Positions 675-63,606 of a stretch of 64,000 nt of DNA are shown here, in pieces (the first letter of the stretch is position 1; every line of letters starts with the position of its first letter). Location: NCBI GenBank assembly GCA_015486135.1, contig WFSE01000116.1:772-64771 (forward strand), in the 5' to 3' direction. The notes below the pieces were generated by a model. The model was not told the origin of the DNA. It saw only the letters and a program-made list of their open reading frames with translations, and did no database searches. Source of the stretch: Lentisphaeria bacterium. Its GTDB lineage: Bacteria; Verrucomicrobiota; Lentisphaeria; Victivallales; JAADHT01. The position numbers were made by a program, and so were the translations under genes.

Positions 675-682
675 TCAATTAG

Positions 683-996
683 GGGTCACTGAATAATTGT
701 TAAGTGCTTTATTTTCATTGGGTTAAATTTCTTTTTAGCGGTGTCATCTCCAAGTTTTTGGAAGCAATCCTCCCAGAAACCTTGGAGACGATTAATGTTC
801 TCCGCTCAATTTGAGGCACTTGCCAATTCCGCGACACACGTTCGTGTGATTTAAGGGTGTCCCGCGCTACGCTGGGACACCTATGTCCATCAGGCGCGAA
901 GCGTCCTTCCGCAAAGCCCGCAGGGTTCGCATAGCGAACGGAAGGATCGGCTTATTGCCTAGCCACTGACCCGTTCTCGACTTTTTCAGTAAACCC
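683..996 (-). mobile_element. Family-A MITE-like element, copy 1 (inverted relative to copy 2), no ORF
   Basis: Ends GGGTCACTGAATAATTG... and ...TTTTTCAGTAAACCC are inverted repeats. The 7-mer CAATTAG flanks it at 676-682 and 997-1003. It shares the TCTCCAAG..CCTTGGAGA core with the other copies. Confidence 0.75.
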
Positions 997-2137: not shown

Positions 2138-2560
2138 TCAGCGTGAGAAAAGCTCTTTAGCGCCGGGACGCGTAAGCGTGATGATGGTCAGCACACCCAG
2201 CACAGTCCCAAACGGTATGAACACGCATTCGATTCCGGCCATCACCAGGCAGAATGTATAATTGACGCGCCGGGACAGTTTCTTGCCGGCCACGAATATG
2301 GCGATCGCCAACGCCCAACCCAGGCATATGATTACCGCGGCGAAGAGCATGAAAAAGAGGCCGAAGAAAGCCGGGGGCGCATTCCCGCTATGATCGCCCA
2401 TCGATTTGGAGAAGATCGCCAATCCCACGATGAAGTGTATAATCGGGAAACACGCGAAAAGCGCGGTGATCCCGGCGACGACATAGTGGAATATCGATAG
2501 CAACCTCAAATGCTCTAAATCCCTTTTGGTGTTCCCATCACTGTTTTGCCGCTCTTCCAT
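2138..2560 (-). CDS. small integral membrane protein, unknown function
   Basis: About four hydrophobic helices. Start taken at MEERQ (ATG 2558-2560) with a GGAGGA RBS. The longer track ORF runs into the repeat. Confidence 0.55.
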   Translation of the reverse strand: MEERQNSDGNTKRDLEHLRLLSIFHYVVAGITALFACFPIIHFIVGLAIFSKSMGDHSGNAPPAFFGLFFMLFAAVIICLGWALAIAIFVAGKKLSRRVNYTFCLVMAGIECVFIPFGTVLGVLTIITLTRPGAKELFSR

Positions 2561-2579
2561 TTTATTCCTCCCTATGTTA

Positions 2580-2840
2580 GGGTTTACTGAAAAAGTCGGA
2601 AACGTGCCGATGATTAGGCGACGAGCCGACGGCGTGCTTTGCACTCCTAGGCGAAGGCAACGAGATCAGCGGTGCGTTTCCGGCTTTCCCGGAATTGGCA
2701 AGTGCCTCAAATTGAGCAAAGAACATTAGTCGTCTCCAAGGCCTTTGGGAGATCTGCTCCCAAAACCTTGGAGATGACAACACCAAAAAAGGCATTTAAC
2801 CCAATGACAATAAGGCACTTGCCAATTATTCAGTGAGCCC
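2580..2840 (+). mobile_element. Family-A MITE-like element, copy 2
   Basis: Left end GGGTTTACTGAAAAAGTCGG and the reverse complement of the right end GGGCTCACTGAATAATTGGC agree at 14 of 20 positions. A perfect 7-bp direct repeat TATGTTA lies at 2573-2579 and 2841-2847. No ORF. Confidence 0.8.
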
Positions 2841-2844
2841 TATG

Positions 2845-3768
2845 TTATCCCTCGACCAATCGCCGTCCGTTCCTCGGCAGAACGAAGGCGGCTTTATGCA
2901 ACTCCGAATCGTAATATTTCAGCGTTTCGAGCATCTCCGGCGACGGCGTTCTGGCGGGAACGCGGGGATCGCGGCCTAAAGACGCGACACACGCGCCGAT
3001 GTTACCGCCCGGATATGTCGGCACGAACATCGCGGCGTACGCGGCGTGGTTGAAAAGCCCCTTGCAAAGGTGGACCAGTTCCCTGACCACATCGCCATGG
3101 AGAAAAAACGATTCCGCTTGCGTGGCGACAACCCCGCCTTCCTTCAGCGCCCCTTTGAGAGCCTCGTAAAACGGTCTTTGAAACAACGCCTCGCCAGGGC
3201 CTATCGGATCGGATGAGTCCACCACGATCACGTCATACTCGTTCGACACCGATTTCAAATACTTGCTGCCATCCTTCACTATGACATTCACCCTCGGATC
3301 GTCGTAGCCGACCGCCATTCCCGGCAGGAAGCGCTTCGAGACATCGATTACCACCTCGTCGATCTCGCAGATATCCATTCGTTCGAGACAGTCGTGTTTG
3401 CCAAGTTCGCGGAGGACGCCTCCATCGCCGCCCCCCACCACCAGCGCCGTCTTCGGCGCGGGATGCGCGAACATCGGCAGATGCGACATCATCTCCTGAT
3501 ACGCGAACTCGTCCAGCTCGGTCGCTTGGATTATACCATCTAGGACAAGCATATTGCCGCAGGTCTTTGTCTTGTACACATCGACCCGCTGGTATTTCGT
3601 CCGCTCGGAGAAAAGAGTCTCCTCTACTTTAATCGACAGCGCCACCCCCTCCCACATCGGGGATATCTCCGAAAACCAACCTGATGCTATCTCGTCCATC
3701 ATAATCTTCACCAAATCGTAGACTTCCTCCACTTCAACTGAGCGAAACATAGCACCTAACGTCTTCAC
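2845..3768 (-). CDS. speE: spermidine synthase
   Basis: LVLDGIIQATELDEFAYQEMMSHLP and VVGGGDGGVLRE are classic SpeE motifs. Confidence 0.85.
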   Translation of the reverse strand: MKTLGAMFRSVEVEEVYDLVKIMMDEIASGWFSEISPMWEGVALSIKVEETLFSERTKYQRVDVYKTKTCGNMLVLDGIIQATELDEFAYQEMMSHLPMFAHPAPKTALVVGGGDGGVLRELGKHDCLERMDICEIDEVVIDVSKRFLPGMAVGYDDPRVNVIVKDGSKYLKSVSNEYDVIVVDSSDPIGPGEALFQRPFYEALKGALKEGGVVATQAESFFLHGDVVRELVHLCKGLFNHAAYAAMFVPTYPGGNIGACVASLGRDPRVPARTPSPEMLETLKYYDSELHKAAFVLPRNGRRLVEG

Positions 3769-3799: not shown

Positions 3800-4040
3800 G
3801 ACCGCGCACGTTTTCGTGGTCTGAAGGTGCCCTTTTCCTTCCGAGCTTCGCTCCCGTCCGGGCTTTACGGAAGGATTGGGGCGCTTGCGTTCGTGTGGCT
3901 TGAATAAATCGATACTATCGACATTATCGATATATCGAGTTTTTTTCCCTCGCGGAGACGCGGAGGTCGTAAAGAAAGAGAGGGGAAATTCGTGGCCAAA
4001 ATCCAGGGACTTGCGAAATTAATGGCAAGTGGCATGTTGT
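3800..4040. repeat. mosaic intergenic repeat block (family C modules)
   Basis: ATCGAT-rich array at 3908-3939 and TTTTTCCCTCGCGGAGACGCGGAGG module at 3941-3985. TTCGTG motifs and the GGGACTTGCGA...GGCAAGTGG motif at 4006-4032. All recur at 5281-5460 and 22530-23011. Confidence 0.6.
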
Positions 4041-5280: not shown

Positions 5281-5460
5281 GGAGACGCGGTGTACGCATA
5301 GGCTGGGAGTAACCACGAATAAACACGAATGATGGGAGGCGATAAATCTGTCCACGAAATACACGAAAGGCACGAAAAGTTTTTCCTTTGCGCGCAAAGA
5401 AAATTAGTGTAGATTCGTGAAGATTAGTGGCTAAAATCCGGGGACTTGCGGGATCCGCGG
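5281..5460. repeat. mosaic intergenic repeat block (family C modules)
   Basis: CACGAAT at 5314 and 5324. CACGAAA at 5353, 5362 and 5371. ATTCGTG at 5413. GGGACTTGCGG at 5441-5451. Confidence 0.55.
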
Positions 5461-5484
5461 CTATTCCAAAGGGAAAACATATCA

Positions 5485-5943
5485 ATGAAAGCACTGGTTC
5501 AACGGGTGTCCGGGGCGTCTGTATCGGTGGATGGCGAGGTCATTGGCGACATCGGCAAGGGGCTTGTCGTGTTGCTCGGGGTGGCCCGCGGCGACACCGA
5601 AACGGATGCCGAATGGCTCGCCGACAAATGCGTCAACCTCCGGATATTCGACGACGGTGACGGGAAAATGAATTTGTCGCTCGCGGATATCGCGGGCGAG
5701 GCGTTGATAATATCCCAGTTCACGTTGTGCGGGAACGCCTCCAAAGGACGCAGGCCAAGCTACACCGACGCCGCTCCTCCGGATACCGCCATTCCGCTCT
5801 ACGAGAAGTTTGTCGGACTGGTCGAAAACGCTGGCATCGGAGTCGCCACGGGACGCTTCGGAGCGATGATGGAGGTGGAAATCCACAATTCCGGCCCCGT
5901 GACTCTGATGGTGGATTCGCGACTTCCGCGGAGACGCGGTTGA
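5485..5943 (+). CDS. dtd: D-aminoacyl-tRNA deacylase
   Basis: [21 protein letters not shown]..., SQFTL and NSGPVT motifs are typical of Dtd. Confidence 0.85.
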
Positions 5944-6019
5944 ATTCGCGTCTTCCCGACTGTAGGTTGGGCGGGGGGACAACTGGATTACGCATTTGGA
6001 ACTAGAGAAAGGAGAGTGG

Positions 6020-6529
6020 ATGATGAGGCGTGTGATGTCTATGATGATTGTTATGGTTGCGCTCACGGTGTTTGGTGCCGCCACGGTTAGAGCGGAGGGA
6101 GACAAACCCGTTGACAAGGAAAAATTGTCGGCGGCGATGGAGTTGTTGAAGGTAACGCAATTGGACAGGACACTCGAAAAACTGATCGTCAACAACGTCA
6201 ACTTTCAAATTCGGCAAAAACCCATGCTCGCTCCTTACAAGAAAGTTATGTTGAAGTTCTTCCGGAAATACATGTCTTGGGATAGCCTCAAAGACGAGAT
6301 AGCCGCGATTTACGTGGAGAAATTCACAACCGACGAATTAAAAGAGATAACGGCATTTTACAAAACACCGGCGGGGCAAAAGTTGGCTTTGATGGCCCCC
6401 GAGTTGTCAAAGTGTGGGGCTGAGCTTGGTGCTCAAAAAGTCCAAGCGCATATCACCGAGCTTAAAACGATGATCGCCGCCGAAGCCGCTAGAATTTCCA
6501 ATGAAAACGGTGCCGGAAGCGAGAAGTAG
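6020..6529 (+). CDS. periplasmic DUF2059-like protein
   Basis: Signal peptide followed by FTTDELKEITAFYKTPAGQK, which resembles the DUF2059 signature. Confidence 0.55.
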   Translation: MMRRVMSMMIVMVALTVFGAATVRAEGDKPVDKEKLSAAMELLKVTQLDRTLEKLIVNNVNFQIRQKPMLAPYKKVMLKFFRKYMSWDSLKDEIAAIYVEKFTTDELKEITAFYKTPAGQKLALMAPELSKCGAELGAQKVQAHITELKTMIAAEAARISNENGAGSEK

Positions 6530-17558: not shown

Positions 17559-17670
17559 CTTGGGGGATTGTTGAAAAAATCGAAATCGCTCCGGAACGCG
17601 CCAAAATAGCCTGGAGGCGGGCTCGCACGGCCGCGACAGCCCTCTAACCAGCTATTTTCCCGTATCTGGC

Positions 17671-17698
17671 TTGCGGTATTCTAGTTGGGTGTTATAAT
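17671..17698 (+). promoter_or_regulatory. sigma70-type promoter of rpsB-tsf
   Basis: TTGCGG (17671-17676), 16-nt spacer ending in TGT (extended -10), TATAAT (17693-17698). Confidence 0.6.
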
Positions 17699-17847
17699 AC
17701 GGGCCCTCTTCGCCTCCGGAAATGGCGTGGAGGGCCTGGCGAAAAGCCAGGTTCGCCCTAAAAACAAACAACAAAGGCGTCTTCCCGGATGGTGCGCGCG
17801 CACGCATCCGTCGGCAAAGTCGTCGAAAAGCAGAAGGAGAACTGGCG
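17699..17847 (+). promoter_or_regulatory. structured rpsB 5-prime leader (candidate autoregulatory element)
   Basis: About 150-nt untranslated leader. Complementary segments GGCCCTC/GAGGGCC and hairpin CCTGGC-GAAAA-GCCAGG. Confidence 0.3.
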
Positions 17848-18900
17848 ATGGCCAAGATCGGAGTCAAGGACCTCTTGGAAGCTGGAGTCCATTTCGGACA
17901 CCAGAAAAAACGTTGGAATCCCAAAATGAGGGATTACGTCTACGGCATTAAAAACGGCATCCATATCATCGATCTGACGAAAACCATGCGCCAGCTTGCG
18001 GACTCGTGCAACTTTCTGCAACATGTTGTTCAGGACGGGGGCGAGATCCTTTTCGTCGGCACCAAACGCCAAGCGCAGAGCGTGGTTCAAGACGCCGCTG
18101 CTAAAACGAATATGCATTACGTGAGCGAGCGTTGGCTGGGGGGAACTCTGACCAACAACTCCACGATAAAGAAAAGCATTGGAAAAATGCGGGAAATCGA
18201 CTCCATCCTGGAGTCCGACAAAGCCCAAGGAATGGGCAAAAAAGAGCTGGCGTCCCTCGGTCGCCAGTCCGCCAAACTCCACCGCAACTTGGGCGGCATA
18301 CTCGAAATGAACAAACTTCCCGGCGCCTTGGTGGTGGTGGATATCTGCCATGAGGATATCGCCGTGAAAGAGGCGAGGAAACTCAAAATTCCGATAGTGG
18401 CGATAGTGGATACCAATGCGAACCCGGAACTGGTCGACTATCCTATCCCGGCGAACGACGACGCCATGAAATCGATAGCGGTGATTGTCAACGTTCTGGC
18501 CGACGCCGTGAACGTATCCATGGAACTCTACAAAAAACGCGTCGCCGAAGAGAAAGCCCGCTTGGAGGCCGAAAAAGCCAAGGCGAAAGAGGAAAAGGAA
18601 AAAGCTAGAAAAGCGGCGGAAGCCGAAAAGAAAAAAGCCGCCGCCGCTAAAAAGGCCGATGCCGAAAAGGCTAAAAAAGCCGATGATGGCAAAAAGAAAG
18701 CCGAAAAAAGCGACGAGGTGAAAGAGGAGAAACCCGCGGAAACCGCGCCGGAGAAAACCGAAAAGGCGGAGCCGAAGAAGGCCACCGCCAAGAAAGCGCC
18801 CGCTAAAAAGGCGCCGGCGAAAAAAGCCCCGGCAAAGAAGAAAGACGATGCCGAAACCGCGGAGAAGAAGTCCGAGGAGAAGAAAGAGGAGAGCAAGTGA
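17848..18900 (+). CDS. rpsB: 30S ribosomal protein S2 with long Lys/Ala/Glu-rich C-terminal tail
   Basis: LLEAGVHFGHQKKRWNPKM. The ATG at 17848 follows AAGGAGA. The tail begins near 18531 and includes KKAPAKKAPAKKAPAKKK. Confidence 0.95.
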   Translation: MAKIGVKDLLEAGVHFGHQKKRWNPKMRDYVYGIKNGIHIIDLTKTMRQLADSCNFLQHVVQDGGEILFVGTKRQAQSVVQDAAAKTNMHYVSERWLGGTLTNNSTIKKSIGKMREIDSILESDKAQGMGKKELASLGRQSAKLHRNLGGILEMNKLPGALVVVDICHEDIAVKEARKLKIPIVAIVDTNANPELVDYPIPANDDAMKSIAVIVNVLADAVNVSMELYKKRVAEEKARLEAEKAKAKEEKEKARKAAEAEKKKAAAAKKADAEKAKKADDGKKKAEKSDEVKEEKPAETAPEKTEKAEPKKATAKKAPAKKAPAKKAPAKKKDDAETAEKKSEEKKEESK

Positions 18901-19754: not shown

Positions 19755-22211
19755 ATGGAATACGATTTCGCCTCTATCGAGAGCGAATGGCAGGGATACT
19801 GGGAGGAGAACGGGACGTTCAACGCGTCCGACTCCTCCGGTAAACCCAAGTTCTATTGCCTCGTGGAATTTCCCTACCCCTCGGGCGACGGTTTGCACGT
19901 CGGCCATCCGCGTTCCTACACGGCGCTGGATATCCTGGCGCGTAAACGGCGGATGGACGGATACAACGTCCTCTACCCAATGGGGTTCGACAGCTTCGGG
20001 CTCCCGACCGAGAACTACGCCATAAAAACCGGCGAAAAGCCGGCGGTGGTCACCAAGCGCAACATCGAGCGGTTCAAAAAACAGCTCAAGGCCCTGGGCT
20101 TCTCCTTCGACTGGAGCCGGGAAATATCCACCACCGATCCCGAATACTACAAATGGACGCAGTGGATATTCCTGAAACTCCACGAGAAAGGACTGGCCTA
20201 TAAGGCTAAAATGCCGATAAACTGGTGCGTCTCGTGCAAAATCGGCTTGGCGAACGAGGAAGTCGTCGACGGTGTTTGCGAACGTTGCGGCGGGGAAGTC
20301 GAAAAGCGCAACATCGAACAGTGGATGCTCAAAATCACCGCCTACGCCGACAGGTTGATTGACGACCTCGAGTCGGTCGATTTCCCCCAGCGCGTGAAAA
20401 CACAGCAGATAAACTGGATCGGACGCTCCGAGGGCGCCGAGGTCCTCTTCTCTATCGATGGCGCGGACGACACCATCACCGTTTTCACAACCCGGCCCGA
20501 CACCCTCTTCGGCGCCACCTACATGGTTCTCTCTCCTGAACATGAGCTCGTGGAGAAAATCGCCACGCCGGAGGCCCGCGCGGAAGTCGCGGAATACCAA
20601 AAGAAGGCGCGCCTGAAAAGCGACATAGAACGCTCCGACGCGGCAAAGGAGAAAACCGGGGTCTTCACCGGAGCCTACGCAGTAAACCCCGTGAACGGGG
20701 AGAAAATCCCGATATGGGTCGCCGACTACGTCCTCGCCGGATACGGCACTGGCGCGATAATGGCGGTTCCGGCGCACGATACCCGCGATTTCGAGTTCGC
20801 TAGAAAGTTCGCCCTCCCGATACGATGCATCAACAAGCCGAAGCGGGAAGACGCGGAAAGCGCGGGGATTTCCATAGATGATGTGCTCGCGGGAACCGCG
20901 TGCTGGACTGGCGACGGAGAATTGATAAATTCCTCTAACGATTCGGGCTTGGACATAAACGGCCTTTCGGTGCCGGAAGCGAAGCGGGCGACCACCGAAT
21001 GGCTCGAAGCGAACAAACTCGGCAAGGCCGCGGTCAACTTCAAGCTCCGCGACTGGGTCTTCTCCAGACAACGCTACTGGGGGGAGCCGATCCCGATGGT
21101 CAATTGCCCCGATTGCGGCTGGGTCCCCCTTCCGGAGGAGGATCTTCCGCTGCTACTGCCGGAAGTCGAGAAATACGAACCAACCAGCACCGGGGAATCG
21201 CCTCTGGCGGCCATGACCGACTGGGTGGCGACGACATGCCCGAAATGCGGAGCGCCAGCGCGCCGCGAGACCGACACCATGCCCAACTGGGCGGGCTCTT
21301 CATGGTATTTCCTGCGGTATATCGATCCGCATAACGACAAGGCCTTCGCCGACCCCGATAAACTGAAACACTGGATGTCGGTGGACTGGTACAACGGGGG
21401 CATGGAACACACGACCCTCCACCTCCTCTACTCCCGCTTCTGGAACAAGTTCCTGTTCGACTGCGGCTTGGTCCCCACAAGCGAGCCCTACGGCAAACGC
21501 ACCTCGCACGGCATGGTGCTCGGAGAAGGCGGCGAGAAGATGTCTAAAAGCCGCGGGAACGTTATCAACCCCGACGACGTGGTCCGCGAACATGGCGCCG
21601 ACGTTTTCCGGCTTTACGAGATGTTCATAGGCCCGTTCGAGCAGGCGGCCGCTTGGGACACCAAAGGTATCTCCGGGATGGACCGCTTTATTAGGAAGGT
21701 CTGGAGGCTTTACACCGAACGCGGAGTCGATAACGCCGCCGAACTATCCCGGGAACAGGCGAGAGTCCTGCACTCCACCATTAAGAAAGTCTCGGAGGAT
21801 ATCGAAACGCTGGACCTGAATACCGCCATCAGTCAAATGATGGTCTTCGTCAACGAGTTCTCGAAAGCCGATTCCTTCCCGCGCTCCGCCGCCGAGCCTT
21901 TCCTTAAAATCCTGGCGCCGTTCGCCCCGCATATATGCGAGGAGCTTTGGCGGAAAATCGGCAACGAGCCCCCGGTCTCATTGGCGGAATGGCCCAAGTT
22001 CGACGCGGAACTCGCGGAATCGGACGAGGTGGAAATACTGGTCCAAATCAAGGGCAAACCCGTCGCCAGAATCAAAATGTCCCCAAACGCCTCCAGAGAA
22101 GAGATGGAACAAACCGCCCTGGCGGATCCCGCGGTCGCCGCGGAACTCGCGGGCAACTCCCCCCGGAAAGTTATCTGCGTCCCCGGACGCCTCGTGAACA
22201 TCGTCCCCTAA
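19755..22211 (+). CDS. leuS: leucine--tRNA ligase
   Basis: 818 aa. HVGHPRSY (HIGH) and KMSKSRGN (KMSKS) class I motifs. Confidence 0.95.
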   Translation: MEYDFASIESEWQGYWEENGTFNASDSSGKPKFYCLVEFPYPSGDGLHVGHPRSYTALDILARKRRMDGYNVLYPMGFDSFGLPTENYAIKTGEKPAVVTKRNIERFKKQLKALGFSFDWSREISTTDPEYYKWTQWIFLKLHEKGLAYKAKMPINWCVSCKIGLANEEVVDGVCERCGGEVEKRNIEQWMLKITAYADRLIDDLESVDFPQRVKTQQINWIGRSEGAEVLFSIDGADDTITVFTTRPDTLFGATYMVLSPEHELVEKIATPEARAEVAEYQKKARLKSDIERSDAAKEKTGVFTGAYAVNPVNGEKIPIWVADYVLAGYGTGAIMAVPAHDTRDFEFARKFALPIRCINKPKREDAESAGISIDDVLAGTACWTGDGELINSSNDSGLDINGLSVPEAKRATTEWLEANKLGKAAVNFKLRDWVFSRQRYWGEPIPMVNCPDCGWVPLPEEDLPLLLPEVEKYEPTSTGESPLAAMTDWVATTCPKCGAPARRETDTMPNWAGSSWYFLRYIDPHNDKAFADPDKLKHWMSVDWYNGGMEHTTLHLLYSRFWNKFLFDCGLVPTSEPYGKRTSHGMVLGEGGEKMSKSRGNVINPDDVVREHGADVFRLYEMFIGPFEQAAAWDTKGISGMDRFIRKVWRLYTERGVDNAAELSREQARVLHSTIKKVSEDIETLDLNTAISQMMVFVNEFSKADSFPRSAAEPFLKILAPFAPHICEELWRKIGNEPPVSLAEWPKFDAELAESDEVEILVQIKGKPVARIKMSPNASREEMEQTALADPAVAAELAGNSPRKVICVPGRLVNIVP

Positions 22212-22214
22212 CTA

Positions 22215-22501
22215 GGGTTTACTGAAAAAGTCGGAAACGTGCCGATCCTCCATCGCCGCCAAGCGGCTATGGAGGACTCGTGATTAGGCGACGAGCCGCT
22301 GGCGTATAAGCATACTCCTAGGCGAAGGCAACGTGATCAGCGGTGCGTTTCCGGCTTTCTCGCGGAATTGGCAAGTGCCTCAAATCGTTAGTCGTCTCCA
22401 AGGCTTTTGGGAGATTTGCTACCAAAACCTTGGAGATGACACCATTAAAAACAGGCTTAACCCAATGAAAATTAAAAACTTGCCAATTATTCAGTGAGCC
22501 C
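22215..22501 (+). mobile_element. Family-A MITE-like element, copy 3
   Basis: Same termini as copy 2. Direct repeat TAACTA at 22209-22214 and 22502-22507. The left repeat contains the leuS TAA stop. Confidence 0.8.
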
Positions 22502-22529
22502 TAACTAGAGCCTGCCGCATAATTTCCCG

Positions 22530-23011
22530 GCCACGCATTTTTTCCCCTCGCAAAGATGCGGAGGCCGCAGAGAAAGAAGGAATGCGGGTTAGCCACGAAT
22601 CTTCACGAATTAGCACGAATAGCTTGTTCTTTGCGCCTTTGCGAGGAACTAAAAAGGAGATTCCCTTGCAAATTGTGTGTTCCCAAAGAGTAACTCGATA
22701 CTATCGATAGTGTCGACATTATCGATAATATCGAACATTTTTCCTGCGTAAATCGCATAAAGCGCCCTAGGGCTGAAAGCCCTGAATAGCAGAGCCCCGG
22801 GTGCAACCCGGGGACAGAGGGCCCCCTCTGTTCCCAAGCGCTGAAAGCGCGACATTTTCCCCTCGCAAAGACGCAAAGTGGACGAGGGGACAGGGGGACA
22901 AAAAGACGGATGGACAGCGCAATCCCATCTCTTCCCATAACTCCCAACCTACAGCACCTACTGGTGGGAAAATCTGGGGAACTTGCGATTTCCACGGGCA
23001 AGTGCTATGCT
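22530..23011. repeat. mosaic intergenic repeat island (family C modules)
   Basis: TTTTCCCCTCGCAAAGA module occurs twice (22541, 22853). CACGAAT x3 at 22594, 22604 and 22614. ATCGAT array at 22694-22736. Run of short GC hairpins at about 22765-22850. GGGGAACTTGCGA...GGCAAGTG motif at 22977-23004. Confidence 0.6.
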
Positions 23012-23606: not shown

Positions 23607-23706
23607 GGGTTTGCTGAAAAAGTCGGAAACGTGCCGCTGATGTCGCAGCCCTTGTCGCCACGGGCGGGGAACGCCGCCGATGGCAAGTGGATTATTAACC
23701 TGTCCC
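23607..23706 (+). mobile_element. mini-MITE with family-A left end and family-B right end
   Basis: Left end (TA)GGGTTTGCTGAAAAAGTCGGAAACGTGCCG. Right end ...GGCAAGTGGATTATTAACCTGTCCC(TA). Confidence 0.6.
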
Positions 23707-29760: not shown

Positions 29761-29781
29761 AAATAGACATGGCTCTCTTCG

Positions 29782-29853
29782 CCCAAGCTCCTTGGAGTCG
29801 TTTATAATTCGCATCTCAAGTTGAGATACTTGACAATTATTCGGGAAGCCCTA
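29782..29853 (+). repeat. degenerate right-end fragment of family-A element
   Basis: CCAAGCTCCTTGGAGTCG core and ACTTGACAATTATTCGGGAAGCCCTA, compared with the canonical CTTGCCAATTATTCAGTGAGCCCTA. Confidence 0.4.
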
Positions 29854-29897
29854 GACTAGGGGGGGTGGAGAGAGCGCATTACCCTTTTCTGCTTTAT

Positions 29898-30941
29898 ATG
29901 GAAAACTTGATTCTCGCTTTATTTGCTTTGGTTCCTGTTTTGGCAGGGGCGTTGATAGTCCTATCCAGGAAAACTCTTTTTAAAAAAAAGACTACTGGTG
30001 CGTTAATTGCGGGAAATCTACTTTTCTTTCTTTGCTTCTTTTTTCTTTTTCTTTTCATAATGGAAATATATTTTCGCTTTATTTTCGACTCCACAGATTC
30101 CTTGATTTGCACAAAAACATCAAAAAAATGGTATGAGCTTCATTACAAGGCAAATCAATCCGGCTTTCGGGACAATATCGAATATCTGAAAGATATAACG
30201 CCTGGCAAGACTCGAATAACCTTTCTAGGCGATTCGTTCACCGCTGGACAGGGAATTGAGCTTAACGAACGGTTTGCCAACATTATAAGGGAGAATAAAC
30301 AAGAATGGGAAATTCACACTCTCGCCATTCCAGGATGGAATACTATCGATGAATTAAACACTATCAAGGCGGCTTTCGAGTCCAAATATAAGACAAACTG
30401 CGTAGTTCTCGTTTATTTTCCTAACGATATTTCATATTTAAACGACAAAGGGAAAAACAAAGAGCTGGAGGATAAATTCAATGATATGACATCAAAAAAT
30501 TTCTTTATATCAAACAGCTATTTCCTCGATCATGTGTATTTCATGCTGAAATACATAACGACACCGGTTGTGCGAGACTATAGCCATGATGTTATTGATT
30601 GCTACTCCGGCGCAACGTGGGAAAACCATAAAAAAGACCTTAGGACTCTGAAAAAAGTTGTACAGGAAAACCGTGCACAGCTACTTGTGGTACTATTCCC
30701 CTTTATGCAGGATATATCGGAGGTATACCATTATAGGGATATACATGATAAGCTAACGGAATTCTGGAGTTCGGAAGGCGTTCCCTGCCTCGACTTGCTG
30801 GATACGTATCTCAAGCGTCATGAAAAATCTCTGGTGGTGAACAGCTACGATGCCCATCCAAGCGCATATGCAAACAAAATAGCCGCGGATGAAATCGAAG
30901 AATTTATTTCAGCCAATCTTAAAACCAAATCTTCACACTAG
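29898..30941 (+). CDS. membrane-anchored SGNH/GDSL-family hydrolase (AT-rich orphan)
   Basis: FLGDSFTAGQG matches the block I GDS(L) motif. Two N-terminal TM helices. Clearly AT-richer than its neighbours. Confidence 0.6.
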   Translation: MENLILALFALVPVLAGALIVLSRKTLFKKKTTGALIAGNLLFFLCFFFLFLFIMEIYFRFIFDSTDSLICTKTSKKWYELHYKANQSGFRDNIEYLKDITPGKTRITFLGDSFTAGQGIELNERFANIIRENKQEWEIHTLAIPGWNTIDELNTIKAAFESKYKTNCVVLVYFPNDISYLNDKGKNKELEDKFNDMTSKNFFISNSYFLDHVYFMLKYITTPVVRDYSHDVIDCYSGATWENHKKDLRTLKKVVQENRAQLLVVLFPFMQDISEVYHYRDIHDKLTEFWSSEGVPCLDLLDTYLKRHEKSLVVNSYDAHPSAYANKIAADEIEEFISANLKTKSSH

Positions 30942-36123: not shown

Positions 36124-36160
36124 GTCCCGAGCCTCCCGTGATAATTCAATGTACACCAAA

Positions 36161-36345
36161 GCCTGCTGAATAATTGGCAAGCGATTGATTACTATTGGGT
36201 TGAATTACATTTTACCTGTGGCATCTCCAAAGTTTTAGGAGTAATCCACCCAAAGCTCCTGGGGCCGACTAATCTTTTCCGCTCAGTTTGTTGCATTTGC
36301 CAATTCCGCGAGAACCGCGAACGTATCGCTGATCTCGTTTTACTT
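36161..36345 (-). repeat. truncated family-A element
   Basis: GCCTGCTGAATAATTGGCAAGCG end, ATCTCCAAAG...CTCCTGGGG core, and TTGCCAATTCCGCGAGAACCGCGAACGTATCGCTGATCTCG. Stops 2 nt before the fucosidase stop codon. Confidence 0.55.
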
Positions 36346-36347
36346 TG

Positions 36348-38465
36348 TTAGCGGCATAGGCAACGCGTTTTCAGCTCTCCTTTCTTCCCGTCCGGCTGTG
36401 TTGCTTCTAGCTCCAATGCTATATCGCCTCCGCTTTGGAAGAATCTTACTTCGACCGGATGTAGGCCACGTTCTAGCACTGCCATGCCGCTTTTCGTTTC
36501 GGAGGCGTGCTCCCCGTCGTTCGAAATGAGCGTTTTTCCGTGCAAAAGCATTTCCGAGCCATCGTCACTAGTCAAATGGAACGTGTAAAGTCCTGTTTGG
36601 GGTGCGTCGATATATCCCACGAATACGACTGCGTAATTCTCGCTTAGCTTTCGTGCCGACTTGGGAATGGAAAGTGAATCGACCACGCCTTCCGAAACTG
36701 GTTTCAACTTGGAGAAGTCCGGAAGTTCGTGCCATGCTCCCTGATAAACTTTGTACTCAAATCCTGGCGCTGTATTTTCAAGACGCACTGCTTTGAGGGG
36801 AGTCAGTTTTTCGAATTCCGCTTTTTTAGTCGGGCCAACCATTTTCCCTTTCAAGCATGAGCGAGTTTTGATTACAAGTGTCCTGTCAATTTCCAAAGGG
36901 CGTTTGTAGACGGGACTGGAGGGAATCGGCTCCGATCCATCCATGGTATACCGAGCCTCCAAGCCGAGTTGCGGAACAATCTCCACGGTAGTTTTATCGG
37001 CAAAGCGCGCCCTCCCTTTTATATCGGGGGCGTTGGCGACTACTGGCGCAACGGCGAATGTCAGTTTGATGACGCTGTCGACTGGATCCGGGGCGCGCTC
37101 CGGAAGCTTCAGAGTGGCACCGTAGGCCCCTTTCAGTATCACGTCGACTTGCTGGCCATTAGCTAGAAGCTCCGCCTTTCCCGGCTTCGAAAGGAGCCCG
37201 GGCAACTCCAGTACGCCATTTTCGGGCCATTCGAAAACATGAAGGTATAGGGTTCGCTCCTTTGTTGTCGAGCGCCCCCAGGAAAGGTTCTTGAACACGC
37301 TTGCTGTGGTGCCCCGAATCGACTCCCCGTTGACTTTCATCCATTGACCTATACCGCGCAATATTGTCAAGGACTCTTCGGGGAATTCCCCGGTAGGTTT
37401 GGGGCCAACGTTGAGGAGGAAGTTGCCGCCCTTGCTGGCGATATCCGCAAGTTTCCGTACGAGGTCCCCCACGGTCTTGAAATTCCCGTCCCTCTTGTTC
37501 CAGCCCCAGTGCCTGTTCATGGTCATACACGTTTCCCAATACATCCCCTTGGGCATTCCAGTGGCGGGTATGTGCTGCTCCGGCGTGCCGAAATCGCCTG
37601 CGTGGACACCGTCCTTAGCGGCCGAGCGACTTTTGTCCAAGCGGTTGTTTACTATCAGATCGGGGTCGAGCGTACGAAGGTAGTTGTAGAGTTTCACTCC
37701 CCGCTCATGGGTCCATGTAGGCTCCCAACCGCCGTCGAACCATATCAAATAGGGGTGGTAGCGACAGATCAGTTCCGCTAGTTGCTTCCTCATATAGTCG
37801 ACATACCGGTCGTAATCCGCGCCTTCCGCAGAACGTTTTTCCCATTTCCTCCTAGGAGTGTAGTCGGGATGATGCCAGTCCATTATCGAGTAGTAGACGC
37901 AGAACTTCACGTCTTGCCTGGCACAGGCTTTGTCCAACTCTCCAATTACGTCGTGCTTGAACGGTGTGGCGTCCATGATATCATACTTGGTGAATCGGGA
38001 ATCGAACATGCAGAATCCGTCATGGTGTTTGCTTGTTATCACCAGGTATTCCATGCCGGCGTTTTTGGCGGCTGCCGCCCATGCGTTCGGATTAAACTTG
38101 ACAGGATTGAATTTCGCCGCGAACTTTTCATAGACGGACACGGGAATATGCCCGCGGTTCATAATCCATTCCGCATAGTTTGTCCGTCCCTGCCACTCGC
38201 CAGCGGGAACGGAGTATATGCCCCAATGGATGAACATGCCGAATCTAGCCTTGGCCCACCAGGCCATTCGCTTGTCGTATTCCGCCCTCGTCTCGTCGGC
38301 TATGTAGTTTTTGGGGTGCTCCCAAGCATATCGCGCCTTTTTCTCGCATTGGGCGCCCTTTCGCTCGTCGCATCCCGAAAAAAAGCACGTAACCACTGCA
38401 CTTGTAGTGACCGCCAAATGAAGTCGGATTCCCTGCGCAATCTTCGATGAAATGTTTAAACTCAC
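36348..38465 (-). CDS. alpha-L-fucosidase (GH29) with C-terminal PA14-like domain
   Basis: FGMFIHWGIYSVPAGEW GH29 motif. C-terminal GYIDAPQTGLYTFHLTSDDGSEMLLHGKTLI is typical of PA14. Confidence 0.85.
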   Translation of the reverse strand: MSLNISSKIAQGIRLHLAVTTSAVVTCFFSGCDERKGAQCEKKARYAWEHPKNYIADETRAEYDKRMAWWAKARFGMFIHWGIYSVPAGEWQGRTNYAEWIMNRGHIPVSVYEKFAAKFNPVKFNPNAWAAAAKNAGMEYLVITSKHHDGFCMFDSRFTKYDIMDATPFKHDVIGELDKACARQDVKFCVYYSIMDWHHPDYTPRRKWEKRSAEGADYDRYVDYMRKQLAELICRYHPYLIWFDGGWEPTWTHERGVKLYNYLRTLDPDLIVNNRLDKSRSAAKDGVHAGDFGTPEQHIPATGMPKGMYWETCMTMNRHWGWNKRDGNFKTVGDLVRKLADIASKGGNFLLNVGPKPTGEFPEESLTILRGIGQWMKVNGESIRGTTASVFKNLSWGRSTTKERTLYLHVFEWPENGVLELPGLLSKPGKAELLANGQQVDVILKGAYGATLKLPERAPDPVDSVIKLTFAVAPVVANAPDIKGRARFADKTTVEIVPQLGLEARYTMDGSEPIPSSPVYKRPLEIDRTLVIKTRSCLKGKMVGPTKKAEFEKLTPLKAVRLENTAPGFEYKVYQGAWHELPDFSKLKPVSEGVVDSLSIPKSARKLSENYAVVFVGYIDAPQTGLYTFHLTSDDGSEMLLHGKTLISNDGEHASETKSGMAVLERGLHPVEVRFFQSGGDIALELEATQPDGKKGELKTRCLCR

Positions 38466-38501: not shown

Positions 38502-38530
38502 TAGGGCTTGCTTAATAATTGTCAAGCAGG
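38502..38530 (-). repeat. solo terminal-repeat remnant of family A
   Basis: TAGGGCTTGCTTAATAATTGTCAAGCAGG, compared with TAGGGCTCACTGAATAATTGGCAAGTG. Confidence 0.35.
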
Positions 38531-38622: not shown

Positions 38623-38960
38623 GGGCTCACTGAATAATTTGCAAGTGTTTAATTTTAATTGGGTTAAGCCTGTTTTCAATGGTGTCATCTCCAAGGTTTT
38701 GGTAGCAGATCTCCCAAAAACCTTGGAGCCGACTAGCATTTTGAGGCACTTGCCAATTCCGTGACACACGTTCGTGTGATTTAAAGGTGTCCAGCGCTAC
38801 GCTAGGGACACCTAGTCCATCAAGCGCGAAGCGTCCTTCCGCAAAGCCCGAAGGGTTCGCAAAGCGAACGGAAAGAGCGGCTCGTCGCCTAATCACAAGT
38901 CCTCTATCGCCTGGAAGGCGGCGGAGGGATCGGCACGTTTCCGATTTTTTCAGTAGGCCT
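38623..38960 (-). mobile_element. Family-A MITE-like element, copy 4 (long form)
   Basis: GGGCTCACTGAATAATTTGCAAGTG at the left and CGGCACGTTTCCGATTTTTTCAGTAGGCC at the right. Its central module is nearly identical to copy 1. I found no clear flanking duplication. Confidence 0.75.
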
Positions 38961-39018: not shown

Positions 39019-39358
39019 TAGGGACAGGTTAATAAAGGCCATCTTGCATGCCCCTGCAATGCCTGCATAGTACATAGTGGAGAAAGAACAGGGACTTGCG
39101 ATATCCGCAGCAAGCTGGTAGCTTATCCGCGCCATGGGACGCAGGGAAAAATGGAGGATACAGAAAAATCAATAGCGGATGTTTGACTCCAATAGTTCTT
39201 GGGGAACACCCATGGTATACAGCGAAAGAAAGGCCAAAATGAAAAAAACAGAAACAGTATTGTCCGGTATAGAGATTGTGACCGTGGAAAATACAATGAA
39301 GGGTTTTCGGCTGTTTCAGGAGGTCTGTTCATGCTGGTGTGCTATTAACCTGTCCCTA
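39019..39358. mobile_element. Family-B element bounded by perfect 16-bp inverted repeats (MITE or invertible promoter segment)
   Basis: TAGGGACAGGTTAATA at 39019-39034 and its exact reverse complement at 39343-39358. Internally carries TTGCGA-N17-TAGCTT (39096-39124) facing the downstream gene. Confidence 0.7.
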
Positions 39359-41173: not shown

Positions 41174-42311
41174 GGGCTCACTGAATAATTGGTAAGTGTT
41201 TAAGAATCATTGGGTTAAATCTGTTTTTAGCGGTGTCATATCCAGGATTTTGTGAGCATGCGCGCGAATATCTGGACTCAGTTCCGCAATTTGACTGAAG
41301 CCGGGAGTGCTAGTCCCGACCTCGGTGGCTCGTAGCCAACATGTCCTCCGTGTTATCCGCCACCGCTCTAGCGAAAGAGGGATCACCGGCCCGTTTTCGG
41401 CTTTTTCCGCAAGCTCTTTTTAGGCAACCTTTTTGTAGAGTCTTCGTTGTTTGTTCGTATCACTTTGGTATTTGAAAAGACAATGGTAGTGGAATCGCCA
41501 CCTTTTTCCCGCATTACCACCGTCGACAAGTGAAACATGCCATTGGATTTGGCGAAGGCAAGGGTTACGTTGGCGACGACTTTGCCTATCAGCTTGTTTT
41601 TTGGGCGGAAGACAAGAACCGGCGCTTCGGGGGAGGATTTTGGAGAGGTCTCGATATTGTAATCCTCCGACAGCACCTCGTAGCGTCCCATCAACCAAGC
41701 GCCCAACTGTTTCCACATCAAACTCATCATCGGGTTTTCCGACCGCGAAAAGACTTTTCTTTCCCCTGTAGCCTCGTCCCAGGTTTCGGCTTTGTCGCCT
41801 TTTATAGCCACAGTGCTCCGCATTGGGGAGAGCACCCTCCATTCCAGCCCGTCGGGGAAATCGATTCGGAGCGTCCCTTTCAAGACTATTGGTTTGTCGA
41901 ACAGGCTTATTTTGTTCGTTTGCGTGAAGTCCGCGGTCAAGGTTTTCGCATTGGTGAATCCAGTTTCAATGGCGGCTAGTATGGTTGGGGGCGCGTCCCG
42001 CGTTTTCGTGGTGTCACCAGCAATCGCGGAAGTCGCGGCCAGCGCGCAGCCGCCAAACAGGAGTTGTTGAATAATCGTTGACAATTTCATGTTCATTTGG
42101 TTGCCTTTTTTTAGGATGTTTGGGGTCAGTTCCGCATGTTGCCCGATACTCAGGCCCGTCGTTACTCGGGTAGGACCCCTCCGTGCCGCAGGCACCTTTC
42201 CGGCTTTGCGGAGGGGGTCCCGACTCCGGCGGCCTGTCGCCTAATCACAAGTTCTCCATAGCCCGGAGGGCGACGGGAGATAGACACTTTGTCGATTTTT
42301 ACAGTCATTCC
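41174..42311 (-). mobile_element. composite: family-A termini bracketing the lolA-like gene
   Basis: Right-type end GGGCTCACTGAATAATTGGTAAGTG at 41174. Left-type end ...GTCGCCTAATCAC...GTCGATTTTTACAGTCATTCC ending near 42311. Internal direct repeats at 41278-41337 and 42126-42241. Confidence 0.45.
41383..42096 (-). CDS. LolA-like outer-membrane lipoprotein carrier family protein
   Basis: Signal peptide MNMKLSTIIQQLLFGGCALAATSAIA. TLTADFTQTNKISLFDKPIVLKGTLRI resembles the LolA fold signature. Confidence 0.5.
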   Translation of the reverse strand: MNMKLSTIIQQLLFGGCALAATSAIAGDTTKTRDAPPTILAAIETGFTNAKTLTADFTQTNKISLFDKPIVLKGTLRIDFPDGLEWRVLSPMRSTVAIKGDKAETWDEATGERKVFSRSENPMMSLMWKQLGAWLMGRYEVLSEDYNIETSPKSSPEAPVLVFRPKNKLIGKVVANVTLAFAKSNGMFHLSTVVMREKGGDSTTIVFSNTKVIRTNNEDSTKRLPKKSLRKKPKTGR

Positions 42312-63414: not shown

Positions 63415-63606
63415 GGGTTTGCTAAAAAAGTCGGAACCGCTTTGTCCCGCCGGCCTGAGTCCAGCGCCCCCCCCGTCCGCGCTCCGGATCTCCATTCCAT
63501 TAACCTGCCCTCTAGTAACTTTGCACTCGCCCTTTTTGAGACCGCGGGGATCGTTCTCCAGGCTCTTTTAGCTGGACCTCTCTCTGGACCTCTATTAACC
63601 TGTCCC
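63415..63606 (+). mobile_element. family A/B chimeric repeat(s) downstream of the RND gene
   Basis: Left end GGGTTTGCTAAAAAAGTCGGAACC. Two right-type ends: ATTAACCTGCCCTCTA (63499-63514) and ATTAACCTGTCCCTA (63594-63608). Confidence 0.5.

Follow-up and report, generated by a model that had tools for sequence, protein, structure and literature searches.

A 261-bp insert at the speE junction of an uncultured bacterium is probably a copy of an abundant MITE family

Introduction

Between a speE-like gene and the membrane-protein gene that follows it on the minus strand lies a 261-bp segment, at positions 2580-2840 of the window (the whole stretch of DNA analysed, 64 kb in length). The locus raises the question of what this segment is, and how it came to occupy an operon junction in which both genes are intact. 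MITEs, which are short gene-less derivatives of insertion sequences, are well known in bacteria, and the segment is probably one copy of an abundant family of such elements, non-autonomous, without genes of its own and moved by transposition. In prokaryotes, MITEs have been defined by a length of 50-800 bp, inverted repeats of at least 10-15 bp and duplications of 2-10 bp (PMC11602168). The segment has the size (261 bp), inverted termini, a copy-specific duplication, no coding capacity, and multiple dispersed copies.

Results

The features of the locus are as follows.

2138-2560, minus strand: downstream cistron, a 140-aa hydrophobic membrane protein; no Pfam family; 3031 homologues, the best about 60% identical
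2573-2579: left copy of the target-site duplication, TATGTTA, directly adjoining the GGAGGA RBS (2566-2571) of the downstream minus-strand gene
2580-2604, plus strand: left terminal inverted repeat (A-L), GGGTTTACTGAAAAAGTCGGAAACG
2592-2687, plus strand: internal hairpin 1, in which the subterminal left-end part (2592-2615) pairs with an inverted internal copy (2664-2687) in the predicted fold
2693-2827, plus strand: internal hairpin 2 (R module), in which GGAATTGGCAAGTGCC (2693-2707) pairs with GGCACTTGCCAATT (2813-2827); nested stem GTCGTCTCCAAGG/CCTTGGAGATGAC
2816-2840, plus strand: right terminal inverted repeat (A-R), reverse complement GGGCTCACTGAATAATTGGCAAGTG
2841-2847: right copy of the target-site duplication, TATGTTA, holding the speE stop codon (TAA, minus strand, 2845-2847)
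2845-3750, minus strand: upstream cistron, speE-like gene for a 301-aa member of the spermidine/spermine synthase family; the called product matches Pfam Spermine_synt_N and Spermine_synth

The original prediction described a segment with imperfect terminal inverted repeats matching at 14 of 20 positions, and direct reading reproduced this figure. The left end at 2580 reads GGGTTTACTGAAAAAGTCGG and the reverse complement of the right end at 2840 reads GGGCTCACTGAATAATTGGC; the first 12 nt are identical at 10 positions, the similarity reaches about 28 nt if one indel is allowed, and the ends pair in the predicted fold. TATGTTA was present on both sides (2573-2579 and 2841-2847), the speE stop codon was found within the right duplicate as predicted, and GGAGGA lies next to the left edge (2571-2566, minus strand). 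The speE ORF spans 2845-3768 on the minus strand, its called start yielding 301 aa, and the membrane-protein gene starts with an ATG at 2560-2558 on the same strand. When the element and one repeat were removed, the junction became ...GGA TAA CATAGGGAGGAATAAA ATG... (the reconstructed empty site reads ...GGATAACATAGGGAGGAATAAAATGG...), with 16 nt from stop to start; excision thus restores a tight junction, as had been claimed. The element would have inserted in this 16-nt spacer, between the speE stop and the RBS of the next gene, duplicating TATGTTA. Given that both genes are intact and that the downstream gene retains its own RBS, the insert is most likely tolerated and read through in the speE transcript, and its co-transcription, which had been put forward as a necessity, is thus most likely. 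Between 2100 and 4100, neither strand of the element showed a terminator-like site, and within the speE transcript the element would form a very stable, hairpin-rich spacer. We infer that the insertion was neutral. The locus offers a clean case of a MITE in a 16-nt operon spacer with neither cistron damaged.

The window had been said to hold at least four further full or near-full copies and several fragments. Besides the element at 2580-2840, three complete and two partial copies were recovered, together with fragments (at 23607, 29851, 30945, 38504, 42223 and 63415). The principal members are listed below.

682-996, minus strand: complete copy (c680); flanks TAATTG (997-1002 and 676-681, minus-strand reading); right end a few nt upstream of the RBS and ATG of an ApeI-like gene
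22215-22501, plus strand: complete copy (c22215); flanks TAACTA (22209-22214 and 22502-22507), the left repeat holding the leuS stop codon (22209-22211)
23607-23706, plus strand: short chimeric element with A-type left end and B-type right end (…TTATTAACCTGTCCC); flanks TAATTA / TAATTC
29779-29851, plus strand: solo right-end fragment with TTGACA-16 nt-TAGACT; the GTG of ORF 29865-30941 follows 13 nt downstream
36159-36345, minus strand: partial copy that retains the R module and, of hairpin 1, the 3' arm, but lacks the left end; begins directly after the fucosidase stop codon (36348-36350)
38504-38528: second solo right end, beside c38621
38623-38960, minus strand: complete copy (c38621); flanks differ (TTATAG / TACCTA)
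41174-41382, minus strand: partial degenerate copy filling the LolA-DAGK intergenic region; right end adjoins the called DAGK start
63415-63606, plus strand: second chimeric element with A-type left end and B-type right end; flanks without match

Complete copies are 250-338 bp long and all have the same termini. The A-L terminus recurs at 22215, 23607 and 63415, at 996 and 38960 on the minus strand, and on contigs L008, L010 and L011. A conserved 21-base pattern of the right module, shared by all six window copies, had 6 matches in the window and none in any of 100 shuffles, and the family and its sister family together make up about 3.8% of the window. Nine more copies lie on five other contigs (L008, L010, L011, L013 and L015), all from this MAG and sample set; these contigs were reached through a representative-library search with the single 110-aa stop-free frame of c38621; in all, A-type termini occupy about 30 ends within 110 kb of genome. 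The copies in the window and on the other contigs are all intergenic. They are 75-92% identical, with mosaic middle parts. Judged by its sequences the family is old, because copies differ by 8-25%, are mosaic, and in several cases are without an end or a duplication.

When the 21-base pattern was searched for in 185,579 species genomes and the JGI metagenome set, the single match was a chance one inside a Verrucomicrobiota TPR gene, and a distant blastn search of a plasmid collection gave no match to the element. The family appears restricted to one uncultured lineage, for which it may serve as a strain or lineage marker. Empty sites were also sought, with none found. All three assemblies covering the 2580-2840 locus (99.95-99.98% identical) carry the insertion, and every covering assembly was likewise filled when three insertion sites were compared. 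A search by flanking proteins found records of the membrane protein and of the VTT protein only in insertion-bearing assemblies, and relatives of the membrane protein were at most about 60% identical and without linkage to speE. Sulfatase and Ser/Thr-kinase genes beside homologues hint at nothing narrower than the PVC group.

The flanks of the copies provided the main evidence for transposition. Perfect flanking direct repeats, each different, were present in five of the eight complete copies (TAACTA, TAATTG, TAGTTA, TAAGTA and TATGTTA; four of 6 bp and one of 7 bp) and absent in three, and the first chimeric element, with TAATTA and TAATTC, may be counted as a sixth case. In cross-copy flank controls, 0 of 56 comparisons reached 6/6. 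The perfect 7-bp duplication of the original prediction thus stands for 2580-2840, but not as a rule of the family, in which 6 bp is usual and 7 bp the exception. It had also been envisaged that the 7-mers might belong to a longer conserved motif; because the flanks vary by copy, with only the initial TA conserved, and are perfect in five of the eight, this scenario is ruled out. The five distinct repeats indicate a target of approximately TANNTA and a duplication of 6 bp (7 bp at 2580-2840). Since 13 of 15 right ends have a flank that starts with TA, two models fit these flanks and cannot be separated. In the first, the termini are GGG...CCC and 6 bp are duplicated; in the second, the termini are TAGGG...CCCTA, the target is TANNTA and 2 bp are duplicated. 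The TAATTG copy would favour the first. A duplication of TA only, of the IS630/mariner type, was rejected, because in five copies the two sides agree for 2-3 nt past the TA as well.

These observations suggest a mechanism in which a transposase acting in trans would recognise the termini (TA)GGGYTYRCTGAAWAA and cut AT-rich TANNTA targets with a stagger of 6 bp and occasionally 7 bp, presumably by DDE-type cut-and-paste chemistry. In a genome of 52% G+C, such targets would mainly be found at gene boundaries, given the AT-rich make-up of stop codons and of the regions where translation starts.

The claim that the element has no ORF of its own held up: reading frames are interrupted differently by indels and stops from copy to copy, and the mechanical ORFs overlapping 2580-2840 are of 54-72 aa. 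The frame open in 7 of 11 copies showed flat codon-position variability (0.21/0.19/0.23). A small protein from the 42-codon frame of the R module was ruled out by codon-position variability together with the synonymous fraction. When the stop-free frames of all copies were concatenated and used in a protein search, 0 of 8000 word-sharing candidates were significant, a search in which random words probably crowded out real ones. Where the element matches database "proteins", these are short ORFs, or extensions of ORFs, that overlie other copies. For annotation, the many MITE copies in the intergenic DNA of this organism inflate intergenic distances, yield spurious ORFs and N-terminal extensions (e.g. 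P0126), and break assemblies.

The interior of the element is modular. The hairpin 1 module (D) is common to c22215 and L011b, and another module (E) takes its place in c680, c38621, L008 and L010; the R module is the best-conserved part of the family, with a mean column identity of 81% in an 11-copy alignment. The predicted fold of 2580-2840 is very stable, at -125.5 kcal/mol (z = -11) on the plus strand versus -110.6 on the minus strand, and c22215 showed a similar strand asymmetry (20 kcal/mol). Stability and asymmetry of this kind would be consistent with structured non-coding RNA genes or cis-regulatory RNAs, the inverted ends then being a closing helix and the flanking repeats incidental. 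However, the asymmetry was missing in four other copies, the middle modules are exchanged between copies, and copy-specific direct repeats are unexpected for RNA genes. Moreover, compensatory change in the R-module hairpin was not in excess: 85.6% of cells were paired, equal to the shuffle mean, covariation was below it, and all five measures were at or below it. A search of the whole 64-kb window against Rfam gave 0 matches at the gathering score. On the covariation test and the Rfam result the RNA-gene reading was rejected; it is largely refuted, and we regard it as extremely unlikely.

The right end of the element was found to contain half of a promoter-like site.

2819-2846, plus strand: outward promoter-like site; TTGCCA (-35-like) in the right end, 16-nt spacer, TATGTT from the duplication; 9/12 consensus match

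The right end, or the R module, might have been recruited as a movable promoter or 5' leader: with a -35 held 16 nt from a flank that starts with TA, insertion into a -10-like hexamer would rebuild or create a promoter. At all 15 right ends exactly 16 nt separate the edge from a -35-like hexamer of the ACTTGCCA type (TTGCCA, TTGACA, TTAACA, TTGCAA or TTACCA); the flanks start with TA at 13 of these 15 and fit TAnnnT at 6, or at 7 if TGGTGT of c36166 is admitted solely on the strength of its final T. A promoter scan called TTGCCA-16-TATGTT at 2819-2846, and apparent native promoters with a ACTTGCGA-type -35 were seen upstream of rpsB at 17670 (CTTGCGG-17-TATAAT), at 22982 and at 39095. A start codon, called or evident, lies within about 45 nt downstream of the right end in about 9 of 16 copies (counted by eye), and only in the copy at 2580-2840 does the left end lie similarly near one. 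Sigma-70-like promoters on MITEs have been documented for Correia and other elements (PMC10969869). Several points nevertheless make this role doubtful. The evidence for promoters consists of consensus matches, and in several copies the start codon falls 0-5 nt past the putative -10, so that a transcript start upstream of it lacks room. The orientation bias in tandem gene pairs is only 5 versus 2. The copy at 2580-2840 is oriented the wrong way for a promoter role, its promoter-like site facing antisense into speE, where the proposal would predict an antisense transcript. Finally, the -35-like hexamer also belongs to a hairpin arm and to the terminal repeat, and this could by itself account for its being conserved. 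The right end of the family may bring half a promoter to many genes.

A cognate autonomous insertion sequence with A-type termini, as expected for a MITE, was not found in about 110 kb of genome, and the surroundings of the copies yielded no IS5-family transposase. An IS30-family transposase on L011 was rejected as the partner, because A- and B-type termini are absent nearby. A different candidate was offered by the sister, B-type terminus TAGGGACAGGTTAATAAT, which is identical to the A-type right terminus at 12 of 18 positions. Inverted TAGGGACAGGTTAATAAT termini bracket a gene for a Y1_Tnp protein of 317 aa (L013 5286-6239), the sole transposase-like gene seen between related termini, in a 1.29-kb unit at L013 5053-6340; the protein scored 33 bits with Pfam (cut-off 23) and 48 bits with NCBIfam REP_Tyr_transpos, below the cut-off of 80. 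The family could accordingly be read as REPIN/BIME-like palindromic units mobilised by a RayT-like Y1 (HUH) tyrosine transposase and not by a DDE enzyme, with the two internal hairpins as REP doublets and the mosaic middles resembling BIME mosaics.

Several observations are in keeping with this reading. Besides the RayT-like gene between inverted termini, the B-type terminus joins A-type left ends in the window elements at 23607-23706 and 63415-63606, and small palindromic sub-modules are found alone and in both orientations. Y1 paralogues are intact, 317 aa long and 74-90% identical, many of them on contigs of 1.1-1.7 kb, as a multi-copy unit would give. On the other hand, Y1/HUH transposition (IS200/IS605; REP-RAYT) is not known to duplicate its target and relies on subterminal hairpins in place of terminal inverted repeats, whereas five copies here bear perfect copy-specific direct repeats of 6-7 bp. 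Furthermore, the Y1-containing unit itself (L013) is without a flanking repeat, the A-type termini are non-palindromic, the GTAG/CGTC tag is not conserved (the base before TAGGG being T, C, A or G), and the Y1 gene could be a mere passenger between two termini. A scan of viral contigs for the RayT-like family gave no match. On balance, we consider mobilisation by the Y1 enzyme improbable. A stronger version, in which a single superfamily uses A- and B-type termini interchangeably as its ends and has the 1.29-kb Y1 unit as autonomous partner, is very improbable. Were it true, an HUH transposase would be tied to elements with terminal inverted repeats and 6-bp target duplications; to our knowledge, this combination is undescribed for IS200/IS605 or REP-RAYT.

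Discussion

The probable MITE family described here is previously undescribed and ordinary in kind. Surprise for the field would lie only in the possible link to a RayT-like gene.

The density of the family in the window (3.8%) is presumably of the same order as that of Correia elements, and the termini GGGYTYRCTGAAWAA are probably unlike Correia ends. The Correia/NEMIS elements of Neisseria resemble this family in being short, gene-less, bounded by terminal inverted repeats, flanked by TA, abundant, mostly intergenic and often upstream of genes. However, they measure about 100-200 bp, whereas this family measures 250-340 bp, has two internal hairpins that differ from each other, and contains middle modules that can be exchanged. 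They also duplicate TA only, in contrast to 6-7 bp here (TANNTA, beginning with TA); no sequence similarity to Correia was observed, and this family resides in an uncultured bacterium rather than in Neisseria. Correia/NEMIS elements carry parts of sigma-70-like promoters at their ends, and their co-transcribed copies form hairpins that are cut by RNase III (PMC10969869).

The BOX/RUP/SPRITE elements of Streptococcus pneumoniae are likewise modular, with conserved end modules around variable internal ones. BOX-type elements insert into each other and cluster intergenically (PMC3049150; PMC10969869). BOX contains tandem boxB units, whereas this family has alternative hairpin cassettes and clear copy-specific 6-bp duplications; sequence and host also differ.

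REP/BIME/REPIN elements share with this family the mosaic of small palindromic units, the hairpin doublets, and a RayT-like gene bracketed by a related terminus. REPs are palindromes of 20-40 bp tagged with GTAG or CGTC (PMC3733652). The termini here, in contrast, are not self-complementary. In REP systems the RAYT gene has inverted copies of the same repeat on both sides; B-type termini, related to the A-type but distinct from it, flank the RayT-like gene found here. We know of no target duplications described for REPs, whereas five of the eight complete copies of this family have them.

The termini of IS903-type IS5-family elements (GGCTTTGTTGAATAAATC) share GG...TGAAnAA with the A-type ends and match them at 12-13 of 18 positions by hand count, a lead only; duplications are of 9 bp in the IS903 group and 4 bp in the IS5 group. 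Lastly, mobile insertion cassettes are non-autonomous elements whose inverted termini enclose passenger genes. The unit at L013 5053-6340 likewise has inverted termini around a single gene, but there the enclosed gene is transposase-like (Y1).

The element at 2580-2840 and its operon junction

The 261-bp element is bounded, as had been predicted, by direct repeats of TATGTTA at 2573-2579 and 2841-2847, and its inverted termini are imperfect (left end GGGTTTACTGAAAAAGTCGG, reverse complement of the right end GGGCTCACTGAATAATTGGC), with 14 of 20 positions matching. The minus-strand stop codon of speE (TAA, 2847-2845), whose called 301-aa product contains the Pfam domains Spermine_synt_N and Spermine_synth of the spermidine-synthase family, lies within the right repeat. 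The GGAGGA ribosome-binding site (2571-2566) of the downstream minus-strand gene, which encodes a 140-aa hydrophobic protein (ATG at 2560-2558), is one base off the left repeat. When the element and one repeat were removed, the expected tight junction was recovered (GGA-TAA-CATAGGGAGGAATAAA-ATG, spacer of 16 nt). A scan detected no terminator-like sites within or near the element; because of this, and because the downstream ribosome-binding site is intact, read-through from speE across the element would be the simplest expectation. The hairpin of the R module (the best conserved right-hand part) was dominant in the predicted ensemble of the operon transcript.

Copies and distribution

Self-comparison of the window bore out the original prediction of further copies, revealing three complete and two partial copies, together with several solo ends or pieces:

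22215-22501, plus strand, complete copy (c22215)
682-996, minus strand, complete copy (c680)
38623-38960, minus strand, complete copy (c38621)
36159-36345, minus strand, partial copy
41174-41382, minus strand, partial copy
23607, 29851, 30945, 38504, 42223 and 63415, solo ends or pieces

The window contained six matches to a 21-base pattern derived from the conserved right module, versus none in 100 shuffles. Elements with the termini of this family (A-type), together with those of a sister (B) family, occupied ~3.8% of the window. Neither 185,579 species-representative genomes nor JGI metagenome records contained the 21-base pattern, apart from one chance match in a coding region. By chance, c38621 is stop-free in one frame, and its 110-aa translation was queried against a representative library of 1.84 billion proteins. 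Seven short "proteins" matched, all of them ORFs called over other element copies; the five that were traced to contigs came from MAG GCA_027076635.1 or its two ENA source samples. The traced contigs contained nine extra copies (five on L011 and one each on L008, L010, L013, and L015). As far as accessible data go, the A-type family is restricted to one uncultured lineage.

Two further observations were made on these contigs. The called start of P0126, a 290-aa protein on L008 (9525-10397), lies inside a MITE copy, making its N-terminal annotation an artefact of that copy; the true start is probably the ATG 4 nt past the element (MVRILIALICLAFVVSCG..., a lipoprotein-like signal). On L011, two A-type left ends (1943-1982 and 2288-2312) lie 345 nt apart with the same preceding flank (GTGCGTCCTGCGTCC...CCCCGAACATCCC), which suggests that the region was duplicated locally or that the left end is fused to a different repeat family.

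Target-site duplications

When the six bases outside each end were compared in eight complete copies, perfect direct repeats were found in five and were absent in the other three:

Copy 2580, TATGTTA
Copy 22215, TAACTA
Copy 680, TAATTG
Copy on L008, TAGTTA
Copy on L010, TAAGTA

None of 56 cross-copy flank comparisons agreed at 6/6. Given that the repeats vary from copy to copy, they are duplications outside the element proper, and not the longer conserved motif against which the original prediction had cautioned. Their common form is TANNTA, and the flank begins with TA at 13 of 15 right ends. A duplication of TA only was rejected, as the next 2-3 bases are also identical on both sides. The pattern could be described as a duplication of 6 bp with termini GGG...CCC, or as one of 2 bp with termini TAGGG...CCCTA at a TANNTA target; the TAATTG copy speaks for the former. 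The upstream gene's stop codon lies inside the duplication at two sites (speE and leuS), and one partial copy adjoins a stop codon; such overlap is expected from an AT-rich target preference in a 52% G+C genome.

Modular anatomy and coding potential

In the fold of 2580-2840, the terminal 12 nt of both ends are mutually paired. Hairpin 1 (2592-2687) forms between the subterminal left end and an internal inverted copy of that end; hairpin 2 (2693-2827) likewise joins the subterminal right end to its own inverted copy and has a nested 13-bp stem. Each element thus has a ~16-nt motif in four copies that make up two inverted pairs. The central part is a mosaic: module D is present in 2580-2840, c22215, and a copy on L011 (L011b), an unrelated module E takes its place in c680, c38621, and the L008 and L010 copies, and module B is optional, found in some copies. 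Over their best conserved part, copies share 75-92% identity. Module E includes a 43-nt palindromic sub-module (TCCTTCCGTTCGC..GCGAACCC..GGGCTTTGCGGAAGGA) that occurs inside copies in either orientation, nested in the hairpin loop of another copy, and also alone, and that behaves like an independent small unit:

904-946 and 38834-38873 (window), minus strand
L008 4405-4447 and 7660-7684, minus strand
L011 8441-8482 and 9890-9932, minus strand
L015 3100-3116

A highly stable fold is predicted (-125.5 kcal/mol, z = -11); it was stronger on the element's plus strand in two copies, with no such excess in four others. A reading of the element as an RNA gene was rejected: Rfam gave no match, and when the R module was aligned across 11 copies, paired cells made up 85.6%, exactly the shuffle mean, with compensatory changes not above shuffle frequency. 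The palindromes are inherited rather than maintained. A protein-gene reading fared no better. A 42-codon frame is open in 7 of 11 copies, but its variability by codon position (0.21/0.19/0.23) and the 35% of single-difference codons that are synonymous indicate that it is not coding, in keeping with the prediction that the element has no ORF of its own.

Search for a partner transposase

A search for a transposase gene with A-type termini, as envisaged in the original prediction, found none in about 110 kb of this genome. An IS30-family transposase gene (L011 12189-13238; NCBIfam, 278 bits), located within a toxin-antitoxin gene cluster, was rejected as partner because A-type termini were absent nearby. 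The sister B terminus (TAGGGACAGGTTAATAAT), identical to the A-type right end at 12 of 18 positions, was found in the following arrangements:

23607-23706, short element, A left end and B right end (23684-23706), flanks TAATTA/TAATTC
63415-63606, short element, A left end and B right end (63584-63606)
39021-39356, 336-bp B/B element, B terminus paired with itself
L013 5053-6340, B termini enclosing a 317-aa Y1_Tnp/RayT-like gene (5286-6239, minus strand)

The RayT-like protein has intact paralogues (74-90% identity), many on ~1.3 kb contigs; a scan of viral contigs gave no match to the family. To our knowledge, known Y1 enzymes make no target duplications, and the L013 unit has none; the gene is therefore taken as a possible passenger between B termini, and its link to the elements as a lead.

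Possible co-option of the right end

Sequence features suggest that the right end may have been co-opted as a promoter or leader. A promoter scan found TTGCCA-16-TATGTT, formed by the right end and the duplication, on the strand opposite the operon and antisense into speE; apparent native promoters in the window look similar, e.g., CTTGCGG-17-TATAAT upstream of rpsB. The same -35-like-16-flank geometry was present at 15 of 15 right ends:

Window: 682, 2840, 22501, 29851, 36159, 38504, 38623, 41174
L008: 9798
L010: 353
L011: 2537, 6112, 10127
L013: 10310
L015: 3250

A start codon lay at most ~45 nt downstream of the right end in about 9 of 16 copies as counted by eye, whereas the left end was so placed only in copy 2580-2840 (about nine copies versus one). 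However, the promoter matches are to consensus alone, several start codons are too near the putative -10, and the called ATG is 0-5 nt past the element in three copies. Correia elements are among the MITEs in which such co-option has been documented (PMC10969869).

Separately, a palindrome resembling a promoter or operator (GGGACTTGCGA-N~10-GCAAGTG, then TAnnnT) recurs upstream of several genes, and the MITE arms GGCAAGTG/CACTTGCC are similar to its half-sites. Intergenic DNA of the host genome holds unusually many repeats, including further short families (one block rich in ATCGATA, blocks rich in CACGAA, and TTTCCCCTCGCAAAGAYGCGGAGG). At its C-terminal end, ribosomal protein S2 (gene at 17722-18900) has a long, repetitive, Lys/Ala-rich extension (18630-18856), visible as direct DNA repeats D6 and D7.

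4005-4037, 22975-23010, 39092-39125 and 17670-17700, plus strand, promoter- or operator-like palindrome
3902-3933 and 22688-22730, short intergenic repeat
5305-5434 and 22589-22620, short intergenic repeat
3945-3985, 22540-22580 and 22857-22890, short intergenic repeat

Classification

Judged from its sequence, element 2580-2840 is a MITE under the structural definition for prokaryotes (PMC11602168) in its size, inverted termini, duplications, non-coding nature, and multiplicity. The A-type family is new; the kind of element is well known and ordinary in principle, and there are two leads of modest interest in an otherwise ordinary element. The A-type element fails the definition of REP; its construction is somewhat like that of BOX and its behaviour is closest to that of Correia/NEMIS, but it is a member of neither.
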